Shown here piece by piece: positions 26 to 61,845 of a stretch of 64,000 bases of DNA; position 1 is the first letter of the stretch; each line of letters begins with the position of its first letter. Made by a program: the position numbers and the translations under genes. Under the pieces are notes generated by a model. That model ran no database searches. It was not told where the DNA came from and worked only from the letters and a program-made list of their open reading frames with translations. Where the stretch lies: NCBI GenBank assembly GCA_944325705.1, contig CALVBB010000001.1:67223-131222 (forward strand), written 5' to 3'. This DNA is from Candidatus Gastranaerophilales bacterium (GTDB taxonomy: Bacteria; Cyanobacteriota; Vampirovibrionia; Gastranaerophilales; Gastranaerophilaceae).

Positions 26-102
26 CAACACGCTCCCGCTATCGTTTCTAAAACAAAGTCTTTATTGTTGAGCCCTTCACTCCTTACTTTTCACTCTTCG
101 CC
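26..102 (+). repeat. Partial copy of the prepilin-locus upstream module: a GC-rich unit (caacacgctcccgctatcgtttctaaaac) followed by a degenerate TCAC heptad run (gttgagcccttcactccttacttttcactcttcgcc)
   Basis: Manual alignment to units at 22629-22668 and 22746-22785, and to the heptad run at 23075-23112 (TCAC every 7 nt). Confidence 0.6.
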
Positions 103-105
103 TTT

Positions 106-333
106 TCAAATATTCATATTCAAATTCAATAAGTCCTCCAGTTTTACCTCAAGAAATTCCGAGAGGTTTTTCATATACAGTAAGGTGGGATTGGTGAGCC
201 CCCGCTCAACTTTGCTGTAGTAACTTTTGTCTATATCAAGCTTATTTACAATATCGTCCTGTGAAATTCCCTTGAGAGACCGTATAACTTTGAGTTTAAG
301 CCCTACCTTTTTTAGAAATTCTTTGTTATCCAT
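106..333 (-). CDS. XRE-family helix-turn-helix transcriptional regulator (75 aa)
   Basis: ISQDDIVNKLDIDKSYYSKVERG fits the HTH_3/XRE pattern. Its ATG is back-to-back (12 nt) with a decayed prepilin stub. Confidence 0.8.
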   Translation of the reverse strand: MDNKEFLKKVGLKLKVIRSLKGISQDDIVNKLDIDKSYYSKVERGLTNPTLLYMKNLSEFLEVKLEDLLNLNMNI

Positions 334-568: not shown

Positions 569-1387
569 TTAAAAATTCCGCAGCTGTAAATAATCATGCA
601 GTGCTGCCTGCCAGTTGCGGCAGAGGTTTTGGTTATTCATTACGCTGTATTCAGGACGTTTTGCAAGACGCGGGAATTCTTCCGTTTTACATGGCAGCAA
701 ATTTACATCAAGCCCGGTCTGAGCAAAAATTTCTTTTGCAAAACCATACCAGCTAACAGCACCGGTTCCGCAAATATGGTATATTCCGTAAGGTTTTGAT
801 AAAATCTTTAAAATTCCGTTTGCAAGTTCAACCGTCCACGTCGGGCAGCCTTTCTGGTCATCCACAACCATGATAGTTTCCTGCTTTGCAAGCGAAAGCA
901 TTGTTTCAACAAAATTCTTGCCGTAATGTCCGTAAAGCCAGCTTGTACGTGCAATATAGTATTTTTTACAGAATTTTTTAATGGCTTCCTCACCTGCAAG
1001 TTTTGTTTTTCCGTAAACATTCAGCGGTGCAGGGGTATCATCAGGAGTATAAGGTGTTCCTTTTTTGCCGTCAAACACGTAATCCGTTGAAATATACACA
1101 ACAGGAATTTCCAAACTGCCGCATGTTTTTGCGATATTTTCAGTTCCTTTTACATTTATAAGTTCTGCCTGCTCAGGCTCAGTTTCGGCTTTATCTACAT
1201 TAGTGTATGCGGCACAATGAATTACAATATCAGGATGAATGTCAGAAATTGCCCTATTAACTGCATCAACATCCGTAATATCCAGACTGTCGCGGTCTGT
1301 TTCTATAACAAAAGCTCCGGCATCTTCAAAAACAGGACATAAATCCTGCCCGAGCATTCCGTTTGCACCTGTCACCAGAACCTTCAT
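569..1387 (-). CDS. rmlD: dTDP-4-dehydrorhamnose reductase
   Basis: 272 aa. Has the GANGMLG Rossmann motif and the YTNVDKAE and YGKTK motifs. Overlaps rmlB by ATGA. Confidence 0.9.
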   Translation of the reverse strand: MKVLVTGANGMLGQDLCPVFEDAGAFVIETDRDSLDITDVDAVNRAISDIHPDIVIHCAAYTNVDKAETEPEQAELINVKGTENIAKTCGSLEIPVVYISTDYVFDGKKGTPYTPDDTPAPLNVYGKTKLAGEEAIKKFCKKYYIARTSWLYGHYGKNFVETMLSLAKQETIMVVDDQKGCPTWTVELANGILKILSKPYGIYHICGTGAVSWYGFAKEIFAQTGLDVNLLPCKTEEFPRLAKRPEYSVMNNQNLCRNWQAALHDYLQLRNF

Positions 1388-2370
1388 TGAAACAACCCTG
1401 TATTTTTTCTGTCAATTACTTTACTCAGCCATTTTCTGTTATTCATATACCAGTCAATCGTAAGTAAAATACCTTCTTCAAATGTAGTTGTCGGCTCCCA
1501 GCCGAGTTCGTTTCTAATTTTGTCATTACAAATCGCATAACGTCTGTCATGCCCAAGTCTGTCCTGAACATACTCTATACAGCTTTCATCCTTGTTCAGA
1601 GCATTAAGAATAAGTTTTGTAATTTCAAGATTAGTTTTTTCATTATGACCGCCGATATTGTAGATTTCGCCGGCTTTGCCTTTATGAAGAACAGTATCAA
1701 TCGCCGAGCAGTGATCAAAAACGTAAAGCCAGTCGCGCACATTCATCCCGTCGCCATATACAGGAACCTTCTGACCGCTCATGAGCTTTGCAATAAAGCT
1801 CGGAATTAGTTTTTCCGGATACTGATAAGGACCGTAGTTATTAGAGCAGCGCGTAATTACTGTCGGAAGCTTAAATGTTTCATGGTAAGCTCTTACAAGC
1901 AAATCCGCTCCGGCCTTTGACGCAGAATACGGGCTGTTAGGTGCAAGCGGGGATTCTTCCGTAAAATAGCCTTCCGCCCCGAGGCTTCCGTAAACCTCAT
2001 CGCTTGAAATCTGTACAAACTTTTCAATATTAAATTCTTTTGCTGCCTGCAAAAGGGAAAGAGTTCCTTTTACATTAGTTTCAATAAAGATTTCCGGACC
2101 TGTAATAGAGCGGTCAACATGGGTTTCCGCCGCAAAGTTCACAATTGTGTCAACACCTGAAACAACTTCGTACACCAAATCTTTATCACAAATATCCCCC
2201 TGAACAAATTCGTAATTAGGGTTGTCTTTTACATCGTAAAGGTTTTCGATATTTCCGGCATAAGTGAGTGCGTCATAGTTTAAAATTTTATAATCGGGAT
2301 GATGTTCAAGCATGTGTCTGATAAAACAGCTTCCGATAAATCCTGCGCCGCCAGTTACTAATATTTTCAT
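1384..2370 (-). CDS. rmlB: dTDP-glucose 4,6-dehydratase
   Basis: 328 aa. Has GGAGFIGS, YSASKAGADLL, and the typical RmlB length and context. Confidence 0.93.
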   Translation of the reverse strand: MKILVTGGAGFIGSCFIRHMLEHHPDYKILNYDALTYAGNIENLYDVKDNPNYEFVQGDICDKDLVYEVVSGVDTIVNFAAETHVDRSITGPEIFIETNVKGTLSLLQAAKEFNIEKFVQISSDEVYGSLGAEGYFTEESPLAPNSPYSASKAGADLLVRAYHETFKLPTVITRCSNNYGPYQYPEKLIPSFIAKLMSGQKVPVYGDGMNVRDWLYVFDHCSAIDTVLHKGKAGEIYNIGGHNEKTNLEITKLILNALNKDESCIEYVQDRLGHDRRYAICNDKIRNELGWEPTTTFEEGILLTIDWYMNNRKWLSKVIDRKNTGLFQ

Positions 2371-2924
2371 AAAAGCTCCTTTTTATTTATTTCCTTTAAT
2401 GTTGGTTGCACTTTATCCTTTTCGCTGAGAACCGGCTCAAAGTCAATTTCCCAGTTGATATTAATATCTTTATCATTCCATAAAACACCTCTATCAGCGT
2501 CTTTGTTGTATTCTCCGCCTGCTTTATAACAGAGTTCGGCTTCTTCTGAAAGAACAACAAATCCGTGGGCAAAACCTTCCGGTATAAAAAGCATATTTTT
2601 GTTTTCTTCTGAAAGTTCGACTTTAACGTATTGCCCGAAGGTTGCAGAATCCAGTCTTATGTCAACTGCAACATCGTAAATTCTGCCGCGGACACACCTT
2701 ACGAGTTTTGCCTGTCCGTAAGGTTTCGCCTGATAGTGAAGTCCTCTTAAAACGTGAGCCGAGGATTTTGAGTGGTTATCCTGATTAAATTCAACATCAA
2801 TTCCGTTTGCCACGAACTCTGATTTTTTATATGTTTCCATAAAAAATCCGCGATTGTCGCCAAAAACTTTCGGTTTTACAAGGATTACATCCGGAATAGA
2901 TTGTCTTTCAAATTCAAACGGCAT
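2367..2924 (-). CDS. rmlC: dTDP-4-dehydrorhamnose 3,5-epimerase
   Basis: 185 aa. Cupin with the RGLHYQ and GFAHGF motifs. Overlaps rmlB by 4 nt. Confidence 0.92.
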   Translation of the reverse strand: MPFEFERQSIPDVILVKPKVFGDNRGFFMETYKKSEFVANGIDVEFNQDNHSKSSAHVLRGLHYQAKPYGQAKLVRCVRGRIYDVAVDIRLDSATFGQYVKVELSEENKNMLFIPEGFAHGFVVLSEEAELCYKAGGEYNKDADRGVLWNDKDININWEIDFEPVLSEKDKVQPTLKEINKKELL

Positions 2925-2992: not shown

Positions 2993-3266
2993 TTATTTCA
3001 GTAAAATATCTTCCGCGGACTGACCGCCCTTTTCTGTAAGTTCGCATATGAATGTCAAACCGATAACAGGTTTTCTTTCATTTTCTCTGTATAGATTAAG
3101 ATAAAACAAATCATACCCCCACCTGTTAGGCCCTTTTATACCGTTAACATCCAGACCGAAAAATAATGAGTTATGATTATAATAATACTTCTGCAAGTGT
3201 AAATGCAATTTTACAGCTATCTTCTCTCAATAAAAATTCTCCAGTTGTAAATCCTCTTTTAATCAT
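2993..3266 (-). pseudogene. Decayed prepilin-like gene, copy 2: a 29-codon N-terminal stub (MIKRGFTTGEFLLREDSCKIAFTLAEVLL*, 3177-3266) and an out-of-frame C-terminal cassette (2993-3208)
   Basis: The stub has a GGAGA RBS and the FTLAEV prepilin motif but stops where the hydrophobic helix should begin. The C-terminal frame has only a TTG start, which lies inside the stub codons. This is the inverted repeat partner of 382-567. Confidence 0.6.
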
Positions 3267-3279
3267 ATATATCTCCATA

Positions 3280-3459
3280 ATGTAAAGTTGGAATAAAGTT
3301 AAGTGGTATCAGCTGGCAGAATCAACGGATTTAAGCACCGCAACAATATCAAAGCTTATGAAGGGTGAGAATATTGATGTAAAGCTCAGTACAATAAATA
3401 AGCTATGTAATTATTTAAAATGTGATTTAAAAGACATACTGGAATATACACCGGATTAG
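3280..3459 (+). pseudogene. XRE/Cro-like HTH gene with a stop at codon 2 (ATG TAA, then SWNKVKWYQLAESTDLSTATISKLMKGENIDVKLSTINKLCNYLKCDLKDILEYTPD)
   Basis: The frame is otherwise open for 57 codons and shows the small HTH regulator pattern (LAExTxLSxxTISKLxxG...L..L). No alternative in-frame start is visible. Confidence 0.45.
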
Positions 3460-4250
3460 AGCCTTATCCAGCTGTCAAGCAGGAGATTATCTGATTGCGG
3501 GGAATCCTTAAACCAGTGTTCGGGGCAGACAACAATTTTGTCAGGGTTTTCATTCAGCCAGGCGGCCCACCAGGAAAATGTTGAGTTAGGAATAATATTA
3601 TGCTTGCAATTTTTCATTAGAAATAAATCTTTATAGCAGTCATTACCGGTGTTAAAGTCAACATAGTCATATGGAAAATTAATTTCTGTAAAATTCTTTT
3701 TTACATAATCCATATCATCAGAAAAGAAGAAGAAACATGGATTTTTAATTTTTTCGGTAATATATTTTATAGCCCTTTTGTAGTATTCCAAATCTGTATC
3801 AATATTTAAATCAACATAATCAGTTCTTCTGATGTGGACAGAAACGGATGTTGTTGAGTTTATTTTATTAAGCATATCAGTATTAGTTTTATCCAGCCTT
3901 TTCTTTGGCGTAAATTCTTTTAGAAGGTCATTTCTATACTGTTTAAAATATTTTTCATTCTGGAAATATCCTTCGTAAACAATGTTTTCAGCAGCCGGAA
4001 GCTTTAGCAGTTCCGGAGTAAAAACCCACTGTTGAGATTCTTTTATAAGAGTGAAATTTTTTACGGATGGTGTAAACGGATGAAAAAACTTATTGTAGAT
4101 TTTTACATTGCAGTTGAATTTATTTAAAACAAGAAACCTAATATTCTTTTTGGAGAGGTCACAGAACTGAACATCATCCCCGAAATTTTTAGCAAAAGCG
4201 TATTCAAACATCTGGTTGCCAAGCCCGCCTAAAAGTTTTACCAGTAGCAT
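3456..4250 (-). CDS. Glycosyltransferase family 11 (alpha-1,2-fucosyltransferase-like)
   Basis: 264 aa. Has GGLGNQMFEYAFA near the N-terminus, plus HIRRTDY and NSTFSWWAAWL, which are GT11 hallmarks. Confidence 0.85.
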   Translation of the reverse strand: MLLVKLLGGLGNQMFEYAFAKNFGDDVQFCDLSKKNIRFLVLNKFNCNVKIYNKFFHPFTPSVKNFTLIKESQQWVFTPELLKLPAAENIVYEGYFQNEKYFKQYRNDLLKEFTPKKRLDKTNTDMLNKINSTTSVSVHIRRTDYVDLNIDTDLEYYKRAIKYITEKIKNPCFFFFSDDMDYVKKNFTEINFPYDYVDFNTGNDCYKDLFLMKNCKHNIIPNSTFSWWAAWLNENPDKIVVCPEHWFKDSPQSDNLLLDSWIRL

Positions 4251-4316
4251 CAGTTTTTCCTCCAGCGGGAAATTGATGCTGAAATGCAGTAATAGCGGTT
4301 ATTTAGGCTGTTTGAG

Positions 4317-4327
4317 CCCCCCCCCCC
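4317..4327. repeat. Homopolymeric C11 tract in the divergent futC-like / rmlA intergenic region
   Basis: Counted directly: 4 C at 4317-4320 plus 7 C at 4321-4327. Confidence 0.95.
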
Positions 4328-4401
4328 TCTCCGGTTTTAAAGCTATAATTATGTTTTGCATGCGCTTGTTTTCTCCCTTCTTTTTAAAACTTATCACCCA
4401 T

Positions 4402-21566: not shown

Positions 21567-22571
21567 ATGACAGTAAAATTTGAAGGACAGGACAGACGTC
21601 AGGCTAAATTAAACAAAGTTTTGCCTGAGTACGGTTTCAAATCTTTAGAAGACGCTAAGGCATTATGCGATTCTAAAGGCGTTAACGTTGATGAAATCGT
21701 TAAAGGAATTCAGCCTATTGCATTTGAAAATGCTGTTTGGGCTTATACTCTAGGCGCTGCAATTGCAATCAAAAAAGGCGCAAAAGATGCCGCTGAAGCT
21801 GCAAGCTTAATCGGTGAAGGCTTACAGGCTTTCTGCGTACCGGGATCAGTCGGCGACACAAGAAAAGTTGGCTTAGGCCACGGTAATCTTGCCGCAATGC
21901 TTTTGAGAGAAGAAACAAAATGCTTCTGTTTCTTAGCCGGCCACGAATCTTTTGCAGCAGCAGAAGGTGCTATCGGTATTGCAAGAAACGCTAATAAAGT
22001 AAGAAAAGAACCTTTAAGAGTAATCTTGAACGGTCTTGGTAAAGACGCAGCTTATATCATCTCAAGAATTAACGGCTTTACCTCTGTTGAAACACAGTAC
22101 AACTACAAAACAGGCGAATTAAAAATTGTTAAAGAACAGCCGTTCTCAGATGGTGAAAGAGCAAAAGTTAAATGTTACGGTGCTGATGATGTATCAGAAG
22201 GTGTTGCAATTATGATTCACGAGGGTGTTGATGTTTCTATTACAGGTAACTCGACTAACCCTACTCGTTTCCAGCATCCTGTAGCAGGTACATATAAAAA
22301 ATGGTGCTGGGAAAACGGAAGAAAATACTTCTCAGTAGCATCAGGTGGCGGTACAGGCAGAACCCTTCACCCTGATAATGTTGCCGCAGGCCCTGCATCT
22401 TACGGTATGACTGATACAATGGGCAGAATGCACGGTGATGCACAGTTTGCTGGTTCATCATCAGTTCCTGCACACGTAGAAATGATGGGTATCATTGGTA
22501 TGGGTAACAACCCTATGGTTGGTGCAACTGTTGCAGTAGCTGTTGCTGTTGCAGGCGCTTTGAACAAATAG
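21567..22571 (+). CDS. GGGtGRT-family protein (function unknown)
   Basis: 334 aa. Contains the eponymous SGGGTGRT motif and has a strong AAGAGGAAA RBS. Confidence 0.8.
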   Translation: MTVKFEGQDRRQAKLNKVLPEYGFKSLEDAKALCDSKGVNVDEIVKGIQPIAFENAVWAYTLGAAIAIKKGAKDAAEAASLIGEGLQAFCVPGSVGDTRKVGLGHGNLAAMLLREETKCFCFLAGHESFAAAEGAIGIARNANKVRKEPLRVILNGLGKDAAYIISRINGFTSVETQYNYKTGELKIVKEQPFSDGERAKVKCYGADDVSEGVAIMIHEGVDVSITGNSTNPTRFQHPVAGTYKKWCWENGRKYFSVASGGGTGRTLHPDNVAAGPASYGMTDTMGRMHGDAQFAGSSSVPAHVEMMGIIGMGNNPMVGATVAVAVAVAGALNK

Positions 22572-22584
22572 TTTTTATAAAACT

Positions 22585-22618
22585 AAAAAAAGCCTTCTTA
22601 TTCCAGAAGGCTTTTTTT
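22585..22618 (+). terminator. Rho-independent terminator
   Basis: agccttct/agaaggct stem followed by TTTTTTT. Confidence 0.85.
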
Positions 22619-22628
22619 ATTTGTTCTC

Positions 22629-22668
22629 AAACACGCCCTCGTATTGCTTCCGCTATCGCCTCAAAAAG
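22629..22668 (+). repeat. Dispersed GC-rich unit, copy A
   Basis: aaacacgccctcgtattgcttccgctatcgcctcaaaaag aligns with copy B (22746-22785) and the shorter copy at 26-54. Confidence 0.6.
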
Positions 22669-22682
22669 TTTTTTATTACATG

Positions 22683-22711
22683 TTGAAAAGAAGCGGAAGA
22701 TTTGATATAAT
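22683..22711 (+). promoter_or_regulatory. Candidate promoter of the prepilin locus, with an extended -10
   Basis: TTGAAA-N17-TATAAT preceded by TGa. Confidence 0.6.
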
Positions 22712-22722
22712 TAAAGTAGAGA

Positions 22723-22800
22723 GGACAATCTATAAATGATTTCTTGAACACGCTCCCGCACTGCTCTCGCTATCGTCTCGAAAACATATATAGATTGTCC
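22723..22800 (+). other. 12-bp perfect inverted repeat (ggacaatctata / tatagattgtcc) enclosing GC-rich unit copy B (22746-22785)
   Basis: Read directly. It lies in the predicted 5-prime UTR downstream of the promoter at 22683-22711. Confidence 0.7.
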
Positions 22801-22872
22801 AGAGAAAAGTAATAAAAAGAATAAAACAAAGGAGATTAAACAATGGAAAAGTCAAGTATAGCAAGGATTTTC

Positions 22873-22883
22873 GGGGGGGGGGG
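22873..22883 (+). repeat. Homopolymeric G11 tract between a strong RBS-ATG (22843) and the prepilin reading frame
   Basis: Counted directly: 8 G at 22873-22880 plus 3 G at 22881-22883. Confidence 0.95.
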
Positions 22884-22948
22884 CAAGTAGTTTAAGCTCC
22901 TTAACCGGCACAGAGCAAGGGATACAGGCAGCCGAAGAGAGTAAAACC

Positions 22949-23827
22949 TTGAGCTGGCGTGCATTTTTGCAGAAACTGATGGGAATAAAATCCCCCCTGC
23001 CCCACTTTATCAAAGGGGGTAATGCCAAAGACCTCCCTTGTAATGGAGGTGGTACAATTGTGCCGGAGGGTTTTGTTGAACCCTTCACTCCTCACCATTC
23101 ACGCTTCACTTCTAAAAAGGTCGCTTTTACATTGGCAGAGGTGCTGATTACCCTTGGAATTATCGGAATTGTTGCCGCGATGACTATGCCGGCGCTTATT
23201 CAAAAAAACAACAACAAAGTTGTGGAAACGCGGTTAAAGAAGTTTTATTCAGCAATAAATCAGGCAGTACTGATGGCGGAAAAGGATTACGGAGATAAAA
23301 AAGTCTGGTACGAAGATTTAGCAGGAGCGGATGTCGATGAAGAAGGAAATATTATAGAGGGCTCATCTGAGGCTGAAGTATGGTTTAGAAAGTATCTTGC
23401 ACCGTATATGAAGATTACTAAGATGGAAACACTGTCTGACGGCTCTTTTGTAGCTTATTTTGCTGACGGGGGAGCTTTGAGAATGCGACTTACTGATTCT
23501 ACAAGAGATTGGGATTATTTCCCGGGGAATGTAAACAAATGTTTAAGTAAAAACAGCAGAAGCAGTTATATAAGAGAATCAACCGGCAAATGCGCATTTA
23601 CATTTATTTTTAACCCTGCAGTTAATTCTGAAGGGTGGAAATATCATTACAATAAGGGTTTTGAACCATATAAAGTAACATGGGATGGAAATATAGAAAC
23701 ACTAAAAACAAAAAGTAACTATGGATGTAATTCAAATCCAAGCAGTTATAGGCAATATTGTACAGCATTAATTCAGATGAACGGCTGGAAGATTCCAGAT
23801 GATTATCCATTTAAGGTAAGTTATTAG
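22949..23827 (+). CDS. Prepilin-type N-terminal cleavage/methylation domain protein (type IV pilin / pseudopilin-like); start uncertain
   Basis: KKVA-FTLAEVLITLGIIGIVAAMTMPAL class III signal, with the F codon at 23126. Candidate starts are TTG 22949 (the track start), ATG 22979, GTG 23060 (GGAGG 9 nt upstream), or ATG 22843 if the G tract were G10. Confidence 0.8.
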   Translation: MSWRAFLQKLMGIKSPLPHFIKGGNAKDLPCNGGGTIVPEGFVEPFTPHHSRFTSKKVAFTLAEVLITLGIIGIVAAMTMPALIQKNNNKVVETRLKKFYSAINQAVLMAEKDYGDKKVWYEDLAGADVDEEGNIIEGSSEAEVWFRKYLAPYMKITKMETLSDGSFVAYFADGGALRMRLTDSTRDWDYFPGNVNKCLSKNSRSSYIRESTGKCAFTFIFNPAVNSEGWKYHYNKGFEPYKVTWDGNIETLKTKSNYGCNSNPSSYRQYCTALIQMNGWKIPDDYPFKVSY

Positions 23828-23891: not shown

Positions 23892-24941
23892 TTATTTCAC
23901 ATTTGCGGACAGGCAGGTCTTTTCGTAGTGGAGCCTGTTGTTAAACGCGTTTATCCTTGACATAATATCTTTGAACATAGGAATTGTAAGGCTCTGCTTT
24001 CCGTCCGATAAAGCGTTCTCAGGATCGTGGTGAACCTCTATCATAACACCGTCGGCGCCGACAACAAGCCCTGCTTTTGCCATAGGCTCAATTAAATACC
24101 TCTGTCCTGTACCATGGCTCGGATCTACTATTATCGGCAGGTGTGAATATTTCTTTATCACAGGGATTGATGCTATGTCCATAACATTTCTTGTAAATGC
24201 ACTGTCAAAACTTCTTATCCCGCGTTCGCAGAGTATTACTTTAGAATTCCCCTGATACATAATGTGTTCGGCCGCAAGAAGAAATTCTCTGATTGTGCTT
24301 GCAAGTCCGCGCTTAAGGATTACCGGCTTGCTGCATCTTCCGACTGCCTGTAAAAGTTTGAAGTTCTGGACATTCCTTGCTCCAATCTGCAGAACATCAA
24401 CGTAATCAAGCATCATTGGAAGATCAGAAGCGTCCATAATTTCAGATACTGTCAAAAGTCCGGTTTCTTCACTTGCACGCTTCAGGTAACGCAGAGCCTT
24501 TTCACCGTATCCCTGAAAGTCGTAAGGAGAAGTTCTCGGCTTAAACGCACCGCCGCGGAGAAATTCGCAGCCCATTTCTTTTGCTGCAACTGCAACTTTT
24601 AATAGTCCTTCGTAATTGTTTTCTACCGAACACGGCCCAACCATCGCGACCGGCTTATTATTTCCGCCTATTTTTACCCCGTTAGGAAATTCTATTACGG
24701 TGTCCTCCGGCTTTCTGTCTCGTGAAGCAAGTCTGAACGGTTCTCTAATAACTTTAACCTCTTTTACTCCGTCAAGTGCTGCCACTCTGCCAGGCGTAAC
24801 TGTGGTTTTATCTCCTATAGCATCAATAACTGTATGAATATTGCCGACATTGCATCTTACTTCAAACCCGTTGTCCTTGAGCAAATCTATAACACGCTGG
24901 ATTTGAACCTTGGTAGCATTACGCTCCATTATGATAATCAT
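23892..24941 (-). CDS. 3-deoxy-7-phosphoheptulonate (DAHP) synthase, type I-beta, with an N-terminal regulatory domain
   Basis: 349 aa. KDO8PS-like core (GPCSVE, RGGAFKPRTSPY, DPSH) preceded by a roughly 70-aa ferredoxin-like domain. Confidence 0.88.
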   Translation of the reverse strand: MIIIMERNATKVQIQRVIDLLKDNGFEVRCNVGNIHTVIDAIGDKTTVTPGRVAALDGVKEVKVIREPFRLASRDRKPEDTVIEFPNGVKIGGNNKPVAMVGPCSVENNYEGLLKVAVAAKEMGCEFLRGGAFKPRTSPYDFQGYGEKALRYLKRASEETGLLTVSEIMDASDLPMMLDYVDVLQIGARNVQNFKLLQAVGRCSKPVILKRGLASTIREFLLAAEHIMYQGNSKVILCERGIRSFDSAFTRNVMDIASIPVIKKYSHLPIIVDPSHGTGQRYLIEPMAKAGLVVGADGVMIEVHHDPENALSDGKQSLTIPMFKDIMSRINAFNNRLHYEKTCLSANVK

Positions 24942-39173: not shown

Positions 39174-39191
39174 TTTTTTTTTGGGGGGGGG
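39174..39191. repeat. Abutting homopolymers T9 then G9
   Basis: Counted directly. Starts 2 nt after the stop of the upstream gene, in a convergent intergenic region. Confidence 0.95.
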
Positions 39192-60497: not shown

Positions 60498-60649
60498 AAT
60501 TCTGGCAGTATTGTTGTGCAAGTATGCCCAACCGACACTTTATTGTAATAACAACAAACTGGACATTAAAATCTGCTTTATCCGGACAAAACGTTTTAAT
60601 ATAACTAACCCCCGCTTTAGCTGACTGCCGGATGGAATTTTGTATAATC

Positions 60650-60720
60650 TGGGACGGAAGGATTCGAACCTCCGAATGGCTGGACCAAAACCAGCTGCCT
60701 TACCACTTGGCGACGTCCCA
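60650..60720 (-). tRNA. tRNA-Gln (anticodon UUG)
   Basis: Manual cloverleaf: acceptor TGGGACG/CGTCCCA, anticodon stem GCTGG/CCAGC with loop TTTTGGT, and T arm GGAGG-TTCGAAT-CCTTC. No CCA is encoded. Confidence 0.9.
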
Positions 60721-60738
60721 TTAATTGTCACATCTATT

Positions 60739-60766
60739 ATTGTACCTGATAAACCGGTATTGTCAA
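60739..60766 (-). promoter_or_regulatory. Candidate promoter of tRNA-Gln
   Basis: Minus strand reads TTGACA-N16-TACAAT, ending about 19 nt before the tRNA 5-prime end. The -35 overlaps the stop of the XRE gene. Confidence 0.55.
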
Positions 60767-60984
60767 TATTCTATTTCTTTGAAAAAGTCATTTATGTCAA
60801 CACGAAGAATTTTTGATAATTTGAAAATGACCAGTGCACTCGGTATGATTGTTCCACGTTCAAGTTTGCCAACGTAATTTATGCTCATATCAAGCAGTTC
60901 TGCAAGTTTATCCTGCGTGTAGTGCCGTCTTAGTCTTTCTGCTCTGATATTTGAACCTAACAGATACCCGAAATCGTTTTCCAT
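60763..60984 (-). CDS. XRE-family helix-turn-helix transcriptional regulator
   Basis: 73 aa from the ATG (MENDFGYLLGSNIRAERLRRHYTQDKLAELLDMSINYVGKLERG). Divergent from the prepilin gene. Confidence 0.8.
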   Translation of the reverse strand: MENDFGYLLGSNIRAERLRRHYTQDKLAELLDMSINYVGKLERGTIIPSALVIFKLSKILRVDINDFFKEIEY

Positions 60985-61003
60985 AATTATTAATTTTATA
61001 CTG

Positions 61004-61032
61004 TTGACAAAATCAAGCAAAGAGATTATTAT
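61004..61032 (+). promoter_or_regulatory. Candidate promoter of the prepilin-like gene
   Basis: TTGACA-N17-TATTAT in the XRE/prepilin divergent spacer. Confidence 0.5.
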
Positions 61033-61099
61033 AAAGAAAATATTTACTATAATAAATATTTAGGTTATTATTATAAATGTTTGCGAGGTGTATAGAATT

Positions 61100-61845
61100 A
61101 TGCGTAAAAACAAAGGAGCGTTTACTCTAGCAGAGGTTTTAATTACGCTCGGGGTAATGGGAATTGTTGCTGCTATGACGCTTCCGGCGTTTGTTCAGAA
61201 GCATAACGAAAAAGTAATAGTTTCAAAATTGAAAAAGAGCTATTCCACTATGCAGCAGGCATACTTGATGGCAGTTAAAGACAAAGGAACTCCTGATTTG
61301 TGGGGACTGGTCGATAATTTGACTAGTGAAAATGATGATATTTATGATGTCAATAATTTTTTGTACCACTTAAAAGATTATTTGAAAATAATAAAATATT
61401 GCGGTAAAGAGGCGAAAGGATGCTGGGCTGATACCAAAACTTTGTATGGAGTTTTGTTTCAGCACCACGAAAATGCTTCTAGGTATTCAAAAGCAGTTTT
61501 GGCTGACGGATCAAATATCCTTTTACATACGTCACAAATCCTGAATGCAGCGGAACTTCCGGATGGGTTAAGGATATATGTGGATTTTACAGGGTGGATG
61601 TAAACGGGAATAAAGAACCGAATTCTATGGGTCGTGACGTATTTACTTTCTATATAACAAAAAACAGAATTGTTCCGGCAGGTTCCCAGATGGAGGCAAA
61701 TGCCGGTTATAGTTTTGCAAAAAGCTGTCGAGATTCCAAAACCCAGGAAGGCAGAGGTTGCACAGCATGGGTTATTTACAATGAAAATATGGATTATTTA
61801 CACTGCAGCGACTTAAGCTGGGATGGCAAAAAGACATGTAAATAA
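61100..61845 (+). pseudogene. Prepilin-type N-terminal methylation domain protein interrupted by a -1 frameshift at the GGG run at 61592-61594
   Basis: MRKNKGA-FTLAEVLITLGVMGIVAAMTLPAF, with a GAGGTG RBS. Frame 1 stops at 61601-61603. Frame 2 (61594 onward) continues VDVNGNKEPNSMGRDVFTF, the conserved C-terminal motif. Confidence 0.75.

Follow-up and report, generated by a model that had tools for sequence, protein, structure and literature searches.

The stretch of DNA analyzed here (the window) comprises 64 kb with a GC content of 39% and derives from a Candidatus Gastranaerophilales bacterium. Between a gene of the GGGtGRT family and a DAHP synthase gene (23892-24941) it carries a gene for a pilin-like protein, whose upstream region is the subject of this study. 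This region contains a strong ribosome-binding site (RBS) with an ATG codon, a run of eleven guanines (G11) and a long stretch that is open in the reading frame of the pilin-like protein (Table 1). A preliminary description of the DNA, made from its letters, had proposed that the tract acts as a phase switch on translation from ATG 22843 and that the resulting leader is very long. The comparative data presented below support this proposal in all three respects.

Table 1. Features upstream of and within the pilin-like gene, in coordinates of the window (L numbers denote loci of other assemblies; nt, nucleotides; aa, amino acids; UTR, untranslated region)
Feature	Position	Strand	Remark
Intrinsic terminator of the upstream GGGtGRT-family gene (21567-22571)	22584-22619	+	stem of 15 bp with a T run after it
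Conserved GC-rich element of ~40 nt, copy 1 (AACACGCCCTCGTATTGCTTCCGCTATCGCCTCAAAAAG)	22630-22668	+	same in L035, L116, L179, L193
Promoter-like site, TTGAAA-17 nt-TATAAT, TG before the -10 hexamer	22683-22711	+	predicted from consensus matches only (11/12)
Conserved element of ~40 nt, copy 2, in the presumed 5' UTR	22747-22785	+	aligns with the element of L035, L116, L179, L193
RBS AAGGAG (22829-22834), 8-nt spacer, ATG (22843-22845)	22829-22845	+	putative prepilin start
G11 homopolymeric tract (candidate switch)	22873-22883	+	OFF as assembled; ON with G10 or G13
3' part of the module, CAAGTAGTTTAAGCTCCTTAACCGG	22884-22908	+	stop in each OFF frame; ON frame reads ASSLSSLTG
Leader expansion, in frame, lineage-specific, ~72 codons	22909-23125	+	ends ...FTSKKVA at the predicted cleavage site
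Alternative internal start, GGAGG (23045-23049) and GTG (23060-23062)	23045-23062	+	22-aa leader, 255-aa product
Mature pilin-like protein (FTLAEVLITLGIIGIVAAMT...), Pfam DUF6613	23126-23827	+	stop codon 23825-23827

The frame opened by ATG 22843 encodes MEKSSIARIFGGGGK and ends at TAG 22888-22890, five bases past the tract, which itself begins 30 nt after the A of this ATG. Both registers that are out of frame with the pilin-like protein meet a stop within at most five codons after the tract, at TAG 22888-22890 and TAA 22893-22895. The frame of the phenylalanine codon of FTLAEV (23126), with which the mature protein begins, is open through the tract back to 22862; its first potential start codons are TTG 22949, ATG 22979 and GTG 23060, the last with GGAGG 10 nt upstream. 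The strong RBS, the early stop and the absence of an ATG before 22979 had all been noted before and were read in the sequence as described. With one G less (G10) or two more (G13), ATG 22843 is fused to the pilin-like protein, which gives a leader of 94 residues, including the peptide IFGGGASSLSSLTGTEQGIQAAEESK, and a product of 327 or 328 aa. Runs of at least eight G occur at three places of the window (10 overlapping 8-mer matches), compared to 0.47 matches expected from dinucleotide-preserving shuffles, and none of 100 shuffles reached 10 matches.

The mature protein matches Pfam PF20318 (DUF6613) over profile positions 2-200 of 200, with an E-value of 1.3e-27 and 97.5 bits against a cut-off of 24.3. 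Its N-terminus, ...KKVA|FTLAEVLITLGIIGIVAAMTMPALI, fits the class III signal peptide pattern: G or A at position -1, F (or M/L) at +1 and E at +5, with a hydrophobic segment of ~20 residues after it. In a profile search of PDB sequences the F of FTLAEV aligned to residue 1 of mature PilE/PilA chains (E-values from 1e-5 to 0.07, covering the N-terminal helix only), and precomputed Pfam matches to N_methyl are faint. The AlphaFold model, with a predicted local distance difference test (pLDDT) score of 86, comprises a helix of 53 residues (residues 5-57) and an alpha/beta head of five strands and short helices. We classify the product as pilin-like, with a class III signal peptide and an uncharacterized head domain; the pilin-like N-terminus implies that it would be exported and assembled into a filament or pseudopilus. 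The leader departs from the short, positively charged type (typically 5-30 aa), as it counts 94 aa from ATG 22843 (22 aa from GTG 23060) and as its basic residues are confined to the last residues (SRFTSKKVA). Pilus machinery was not seen among those window open reading frames (ORFs) that were scanned against Pfam, which were only some of them, and a prepilin peptidase was not searched for outside the window.

Other assemblies of the locus were collected by exact-protein look-ups with the two flanking genes as queries. They returned many human-gut metagenome contigs carrying the pilin locus, with tract lengths that represent the consensus of short-read assemblies and not reads. The tract is G11 in nine independent assemblies (the window, L001, L002, L004, L005, L006, L011, L018 and L019), G10 in L003, L007 and L196, and G13 in L014. 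In L195, which carries a short-leader allele, it is G10, which is OFF in that allele, while the contigs L008, L015 and L016 end inside the tract. Thus, G10, G11 and G13 all occur, rather than a uniform G11, and at the window's own locus 4 of 14 tracts are ON. Accordingly, gene callers report fused products of 327 aa (P0130, the window-type allele), 358 aa and 359 aa, as had been foreseen for G10 and G13. Contigs with identical single-nucleotide polymorphism (SNP) haplotypes differ in the tract: L004 has G11 and L007 G10, and L003, L019 and L014 have G10, G11 and G13, respectively. Hence the tract mutates faster than point mutations build up. Also in favor of a switch, the other two G tracts of the window likewise vary between assemblies. 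The preliminary description had left the choice between an OFF state and a misassembled tract; the OFF state holds, while misassembly as the sole explanation is unlikely because G11 recurs in nine independent assemblies. A DNA-pattern census of this locus's tract lengths in metagenomes of the Joint Genome Institute (JGI) yielded 0 matches.

The comparison of alleles also bears on the nature of the stretch between tract and pilin. In the window its pilin frame has 0 stops in 80 codons, compared to 6 and 5 in the other two frames. The allele shared by L003, L014 and L019 has a leader that is largely different in sequence and 93 nt (31 codons) longer, reaching 125 aa in L003; nevertheless, its 111 codons contain 0 stops in the pilin frame, compared to 6 and 9 in the others. 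A third allele (P0002, P0136) carries an in-frame insertion of 32 codons adjoining FTLAEV. Each of the three independent indels in the leader has a length divisible by three and introduces no stop, whereas indels upstream of the ATG measure 1, 1, 2 and 105 nt and are not all multiples of three. The stretch thus appears to be coding, judged from three independent alleles. Leader substitutions are mostly non-synonymous (about 6 to 2 in a hand count of the short alleles), and the leader seems to be constrained only to stay open. The L003-type allele lacks both GTG 23060 and its GGAGG; it reads GTA GTT GTT there, and its nearest in-frame ATG lies 80 codons upstream of the F codon. Consequently, GTG 23060 is not a conserved feature.

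How such a long leader came about is indicated by relatives of the gene. A protein search found more than 7,000 homologs, which combine Pfam DUF6613 with a prepilin N-terminus and typically have 230-240 aa and leaders of 4-8 aa; the one named match belongs to Candidatus Scatousia, a member of the Gastranaerophilales. P0004 (L020/L021) carries the window's module in frame, and its 20-aa leader contains the tract. The sequence reads GAAAGGAG-ATG GGA AAC ACA CTA ATA GCG CGG ATT TCG-G10-CAG CAT AGC TTA AAG CCC GGG|TTT ACT, corresponding to RBS, ATG, 10 codons (9 before the run), G10, 7 codons and G|FTLAEV. Seven closer paralogs (L035, L116, L119, L163, L179, L192 and L193) share with the window AAAGGAGATT, ATGGAAAAC.., a tract of G10 or, in L179, G9, and CArrGTArTTTAAGCTCCtTAACCGG. 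From there it is 60 nt to G|FTLAEV, which gives a leader of 41 aa if in frame, and the leader peptide ..LSSLTGIGAG..PF.. is conserved through synonymous changes at third positions. The sequence around the RBS and ATG, from AAAGGAGATT to ATGGAAAA, is kept in the paralogs, and the 3' part of the module is conserved in all seven as well as in L020 and L195. In the window and these relatives alike, the sequence after the tract provides each OFF frame with a stop within five codons. L195 occupies the same chromosomal position adjoining DAHP synthase, with 105 nt from tract to F codon and a leader of ~47 aa. The window diverges from the seven paralogs directly after TTAACCGG (22908), and the slightly GC-richer expansion that follows is absent from them and from L195. 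Since the leaders of the relatives measure 20-47 aa with the tract inside, the 94-aa leader of the window represents a lineage-specific, in-frame expansion of a normal-sized leader that already bore the tract. That it lies far beyond the usual range had been recognized before, and the tract-bearing relatives and the tract-less paralogs (4-8 aa) bear this out.

Long leaders elsewhere in the family reach ~220 aa (predicted for L046) and are mosaics of translated, GC-richer repeats (HPELVSGS, AKRHRCKASI, KRTYSPVHLFSYSL), which still remain open. In the window the 3' part of the leader (23073-23118) is a dispersed TTCAC-rich repeat with a second copy at 65-110, the two being 78% identical. At the pilin locus this repeat, TTGTTGArCCCTTCACTCCT.AC..TTCAC..TTC, encodes VEPFTPHHSRFTS immediately ahead of the cleavage site, and similar translated repeats (ERFTPHPSRFT and KRTYSPVHLFSYSL) occupy the same position in other loci. 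The idea that the expansion is a high-copy miniature inverted-repeat transposable element (MITE) was supported only in part. When 22621-23125 was compared by BLAST with all other parts of the window and with about 175 non-orthologous loci, no multi-copy element emerged; the matches were to the common 5' module, the 40-nt element upstream, a single 39-nt segment in the leader of L039 and the 46-nt copy at 65-110.

For a survey of the family, an alignment of the pilin was used to scan two collections separately, GTDB with one genome for each species and metagenome contigs from public sources, and each gave 80 loci, 160 in total (GTDB loci L035-L114, metagenome loci L115-L194). A tract was counted if a run of at least 8 G lay on the coding strand within 700 nt upstream of the pilin N-terminus. 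The GTDB loci stem mostly from metagenome-assembled genomes labeled Gastranaerophilales or Melainabacteria, while the remaining ones are unnamed or bear seemingly wrong labels (Brachyspira, Clostridium, Muribaculaceae, Heliobacteriaceae). Tracts were present at 33 GTDB and 36 metagenome loci. These 69 tracts (G8-G13) lie 16-634 nt upstream of the pilin N-terminus and correspond to about 40% of the family. Between tract and F codon, no stop interrupts the pilin frame in 31/33 and 35/36 loci, respectively (66/69 combined). The pilin frame and the other two contain 7, 165 and 127 stops over 6,051 nt of GTDB loci and 3, 144 and 96 over 4,017 nt of metagenome loci, which amounts to 10 against 309 and 223. 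Even the locus with the largest distance, 634 nt, has 0 stops compared to 15 and 13. The frame is thus under selection to stay open. The preliminary description had cautioned that openness is only weak evidence for coding; the alleles compared above indicate that the stretch is coding. An RBS-ATG with a strong Shine-Dalgarno sequence lies 11-35 nt before nearly every tract. Furthermore, all 40 runs of at least 8 G or C in 267 kb of GTDB loci are located upstream of a pilin N-terminus, and none was found in gene bodies or downstream flanks. Paralogs without a tract have an ATG 4-8 codons before the F codon. Of the 34 GTDB loci that bear a tract of either G or C, 12 lack any in-frame ATG, GTG or TTG, so that only the upstream ATG can serve as their start.

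In those loci where the phase could be scored, the ON state was found in 1/28 GTDB loci and 5/30 metagenome loci. Both OFF frames are occupied (rel=1 in 24 loci, rel=2 in 28), and the modal tract length is G10-G11. Gene-caller N-termini of the form M..GGG.. (P0032, P0040, P0068, P0100, P0115) were considered as candidate ON alleles and rejected: in L040 (P0068) the M is a TTG in the pilin frame before the tract and not the RBS-ATG. In five further loci (L092, L095, L097, L101 and L105) a C9-C10 run on the coding strand replaces the poly-G at the same upstream position, 33-564 nt before the F codon.

With regard to transcription, the terminator of the preceding gene and the promoter-like site downstream of it suggest an independent pilin transcript, and we infer that the promoter-like site is the promoter of the switch-controlled mRNA. 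The GC-rich element of ~40 nt follows the consensus ACACGCTCyCGCmCTGCTyyCGCTATCGyCTCrAAAA. Besides the two copies listed in Table 1, it occurs at 30-55 of the window, and paralogous loci of other species (L035, L116, L179 and L193) carry it ~75 nt before the ATG of the cassette. It could serve as a binding site for a regulator or as an element of the 5' UTR. Two assemblies (L002, L010) contain an insertion of 105 nt about 100 nt upstream of the ATG (equivalent to ~22720 of the window), between the promoter-like site and copy 2. This insertion includes the hairpin repeat CATCCCTGAACTAGGTTCAGGATC, which is translated as HPELVSGS in the long leaders of other paralogs. At the gathering threshold, Rfam yielded only a tRNA (60649-60720) in the window and no family that accounts for the pilin 5' region. 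A permissive scan of 22400-23300 gave sub-threshold matches only, driven by the terminator, and a known RNA element was thus discarded. A strongly structured leader RNA was not supported: its minimum free energy (MFE) of -71.3 compares to -66.4 +/- 4.7 in shuffles (z = -1.04). Of the earlier remark that the open frame is GC-richer and carries C/G hairpin repeats, the composition stands, while the repeats do not fold unusually well as RNA.

Taken together, the locus displays a slip-prone tract in the 5' coding region, length differences on the same flanks and an alternation between intact frame and early termination, as is typical for contingency loci. We consider it likely that a gene for a pilin-like surface protein is switched here by slipped-strand mispairing in a poly-G tract within the coding sequence of its own class III leader. 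Transcription would probably start at the promoter-like site, and ribosomes would initiate at the strong RBS-ATG, which we take as the true prepilin start, and meet the tract 10 codons on. With G10 or G13 they would read through the 94-residue leader into FTLAEV and complete the 327- or 328-aa preprotein, from which a prepilin peptidase would then cut off the leader after ...KKVA. With G11, as in this assembly, or G12, they would stop at TAG 22888 or TAA 22893, at most five codons past the tract, and no pilin would be made, or only a trickle from GTG 23060. Slippage during replication would change the tract length at a presumably high frequency, so that a population would always contain ON and OFF cells. 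The putative selective agent acting on the presumably surface-exposed protein could be immunity or a pilus-specific phage. Because the leader would be discarded, the stretch between switch and cleavage site could tolerate in-frame insertions, which would explain its growth to 94 aa (125 aa in the other allele) compared to 20-47 aa in relatives.

Other explanations have to be weighed against this one. Translation might start at GTG 23060 with a 22-aa leader, in which case ATG 22843 and the tract would form an upstream ORF (uORF) or another feature of the 5' UTR without effect, or with a modulatory effect through the position of uORF termination, mRNA stability or Rho-dependent polarity. This start had been pointed out earlier, and GGAGG-10 nt-GTG is indeed present, is plausible as an initiation site and is chosen by gene callers in every G11 assembly (255 aa). 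In addition, uORF-type control seems to be present in the genome, since a uORF with a second G tract (4317-4327) is not fused to the GT11 gene downstream of it and would overlap its start codon as TGATG in one state. However, the allele of L003, L014 and L019 does without GTG and GGAGG, a UTR would not stay free of stops in one frame for 80-210 codons at 66 of 69 loci, 12 related loci have no alternative start in frame, and in relatives the tract lies within leaders of 20-47 aa. An exclusively internal start is thus unlikely, and GTG 23060 is probably at most a leaky start of the window allele. Alternatively, the DNA could be kept out of frame while RNA polymerase, or the ribosome, slips on the G run and thereby puts a fixed fraction of the transcripts in frame. 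This would be programmed recoding instead of heritable ON/OFF switching. It would fit the rarity of ON alleles in the survey and at this locus, and the observation that the modal tract of G10-G11 is usually exactly one base off the ON state. RNA polymerase is known to slip on runs of at least 9, although this is mainly established for A/T runs and less documented for G/C. Against it, both OFF frames are populated (24 and 28 loci), so that no single direction of slippage serves all loci; moreover, ON alleles exist at the DNA level and the DNA tract itself varies. We see no more than a slim chance for it.

Finally, the gene could be a decaying or silent paralog that lost its native start to insertions, with the tract as a hypermutable relic and length differences that are partly assembly noise. 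In favor of this, most assemblies are OFF, and the leader substitutions are mostly non-synonymous. Furthermore, L004 (= L013, a BRZ_BK contig) bears a nonsense mutation, GGA to TGA, at Gly78 of the 255-aa form, which splits the pilin of this one sample into ORFs of 77 aa and 139 aa. The pilin gene is thus dispensable at least sometimes and can be lost outright. A T9G9 tract at 39174-39191, located between two convergent genes, is found as T8G11, T10G9 or T9G10 in other assemblies; without obvious function, it varies as much as the pilin tract. However, the mature part (233 codons) is intact and nearly identical in more than 15 assemblies except L004, the three leader indels all keep the frame, and an architecture kept across dozens of species is not expected of a decaying gene. 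Decay is accordingly highly improbable.

The nonsense allele and the T9G9 tract nevertheless weigh against a functional phase switch, as do several further points. Length variation by itself is no proof of function, as tracts vary whatever their position. Consensus errors of short-read assemblies may contribute to the length differences in the range G10-G13, and L196, the window-type contig in the ON state, is covered only 1.8x. Of the 58 scorable loci, only 6 have an RBS-ATG in frame with the pilin, while one third would be expected (binomial P = 5e-5, presuming independent loci). Such a depletion of ON states is not predicted by simple neutral switching; counter-selection of ON cells, expression of few members per cell, or transcriptional slippage are possible reasons. 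The globular head lacks a significant match among solved pilins (Foldseek against PDB, none at E <= 0.001). Finally, we know of no experimentally characterized precedent for a prepilin leader of 94-125 aa, which is several-fold above any that we are aware of.

If the phase switch is extended to the family, a far-reaching scenario can be envisioned: a clade-wide, combinatorial system of surface variation in gut Gastranaerophilales. In this scenario, dozens of DUF6613 paralogs per lineage would stand behind a portable cassette of RBS-ATG, short peptide, poly-G and double stop, with a related cassette on the GT11 glycosyltransferase gene of the window. The consensus would mostly be OFF, held there by strong counter-selection (such as immunoglobulin A or pilus-specific phage) or with expression through transcriptional slippage. 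Leaders of 100 to >200 residues, filled with in-frame repeat insertions, would still be recognized and removed by prepilin peptidase. That all of these parts hold jointly is doubtful.

The closest analog is pilC of Neisseria gonorrhoeae and N. meningitidis, in which a homo-G tract in the signal-peptide region causes RecA-independent ON/OFF switching by frameshift (PMC5354566). In both cases a G run lies a few codons past the start, in a cleaved targeting peptide of a pilus-associated protein. However, PilC is a Sec-exported tip adhesin or assembly factor with a signal peptide of ordinary length and not a pilin, whereas here the tract resides in the class III leader (94-125 aa) of the pilin-like subunit itself and the module is spread over a large paralogous family. 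For Campylobacter jejuni, multiple poly-G contingency loci per genome are reported to create combinatorial phasotypes (PMC8437040; PMC5380846). The likeness consists in G8-G13 tracts in the 5' parts of many surface-structure genes of a low-GC gut bacterium. In contrast, the Campylobacter targets are mostly glycosyltransferases and genes for capsule, lipooligosaccharide and flagellar modification, and they lack a common cassette at the 5' end. In the pilin-like family of the window, about 40% of the members share a recognizably homologous module of RBS-ATG, peptide, G(n) and two stops.

The opa genes of Neisseria carry CTCTT repeats in the region of the leader peptide. They constitute a multigene family in which most members are OFF and a cell has one or a few of them ON. 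The repeat likewise lies in a cleaved leader and shifts the frame while the mature protein remains unchanged, but it is a pentanucleotide, and opa genes encode outer-membrane beta-barrels that carry Sec signal peptides. Long-leader prepilins of type IVb or Tad type (TcpA, CofA, BfpA, PilS) have leaders of 13-30 aa. They resemble the protein studied here in a charged leader ending in G or A, a hydrophobic helix and Glu at +5, while leaders of 94 aa are predicted for the window, of 125 aa for L003 and of up to ~220 aa for L046, and the protein has Phe at +1 and Ala at -1. Rickettsia palindromic elements are short repeats within ORFs that keep the frame and are tolerated in structurally unimportant segments. 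GC-richer short repeats with preserved frame are found here as well, yet the insertions of the window gather in a segment that would be cleaved off, and only one copy of one segment was found elsewhere in the window (65-110).

In the literature searched, no paper connected Melainabacteria or Gastranaerophilales with phase variation, and none mentioned DUF6613. The clade, the position in a prepilin leader, the cassette on about 40% of a huge paralogous family and the leader length are new, while the type of mechanism is already known. Melainabacteria (Gastranaerophilales) are relatives of cyanobacteria that are widespread in the gut and remain uncultured, and there is hardly any knowledge of their interactions with hosts and phages. 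If the phase switch is real, these commensals would rely on contingency loci in the manner of Neisseria, Haemophilus, Helicobacter and Campylobacter, and their surface filaments would be under strong fluctuating selection. On the practical side, gene callers mis-annotate tract-bearing genes as truncated or wrongly started ORFs (255, 282, 313 aa and similar lengths), and assemblies break at the tracts, whose lengths could serve as read-level markers of the population state. Very long, frame-preserved leaders would in addition probe the limit of N-terminal cargo on substrates of prepilin peptidase.

Besides the pilin locus, other regions of the window show related features. The second G11 tract (4317-4327) is part of a short ORF (4250-4361, reverse strand) that starts at ATG 4361, encodes MQNIIIALKPERGGGLKQPK and stops at 4301-4299. 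The GT11 gene downstream of it (3456-4250) belongs to the fucosyltransferase family, and the N-terminal peptide of the ORF is similar to pilin cassettes found elsewhere (MQNTIIASKLRGGGG.., MQNSIIALKTQRGGG..). Six assemblies have a GGAGA+G(n) segment of 15 nt, four, among them the window, have one of 16 nt, and a single assembly has one of 17 nt. The 15-nt version would extend the uORF to a TGA that overlaps the GT11 ATG (TGATG), which suggests a switchable translational coupling.

Further to the left, an inverted repeat of 170-190 nt (377-567 and 2993-3184, 92% complementary) flanks rmlD-rmlB-rmlC (569-2924, reverse strand), and a truncated pilin N-terminus, MEIYMIKRGFTTGEFLLREDSCKIAFTLAEVLL* (3177-3278, reverse strand), is found just outside its right arm. 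The enclosed segment could be invertible or transposed; the spacing between GT11 and rmlC is constant in other assemblies. A second pilin-like gene (61088-61845, forward strand) has a 7-aa leader, MRKNKGA|FTLAEV (61101), and no tract. It is split into ORFs of 171 aa and 83 aa near 61594-61603, probably by a 1-nt frameshift around ACAGGGTGG. Upstream of it lies a small, divergent gene of the XRE type with a helix-turn-helix (HTH) domain (60763-61020, reverse strand), and a similar HTH ORF is located at 106-333 (reverse strand).

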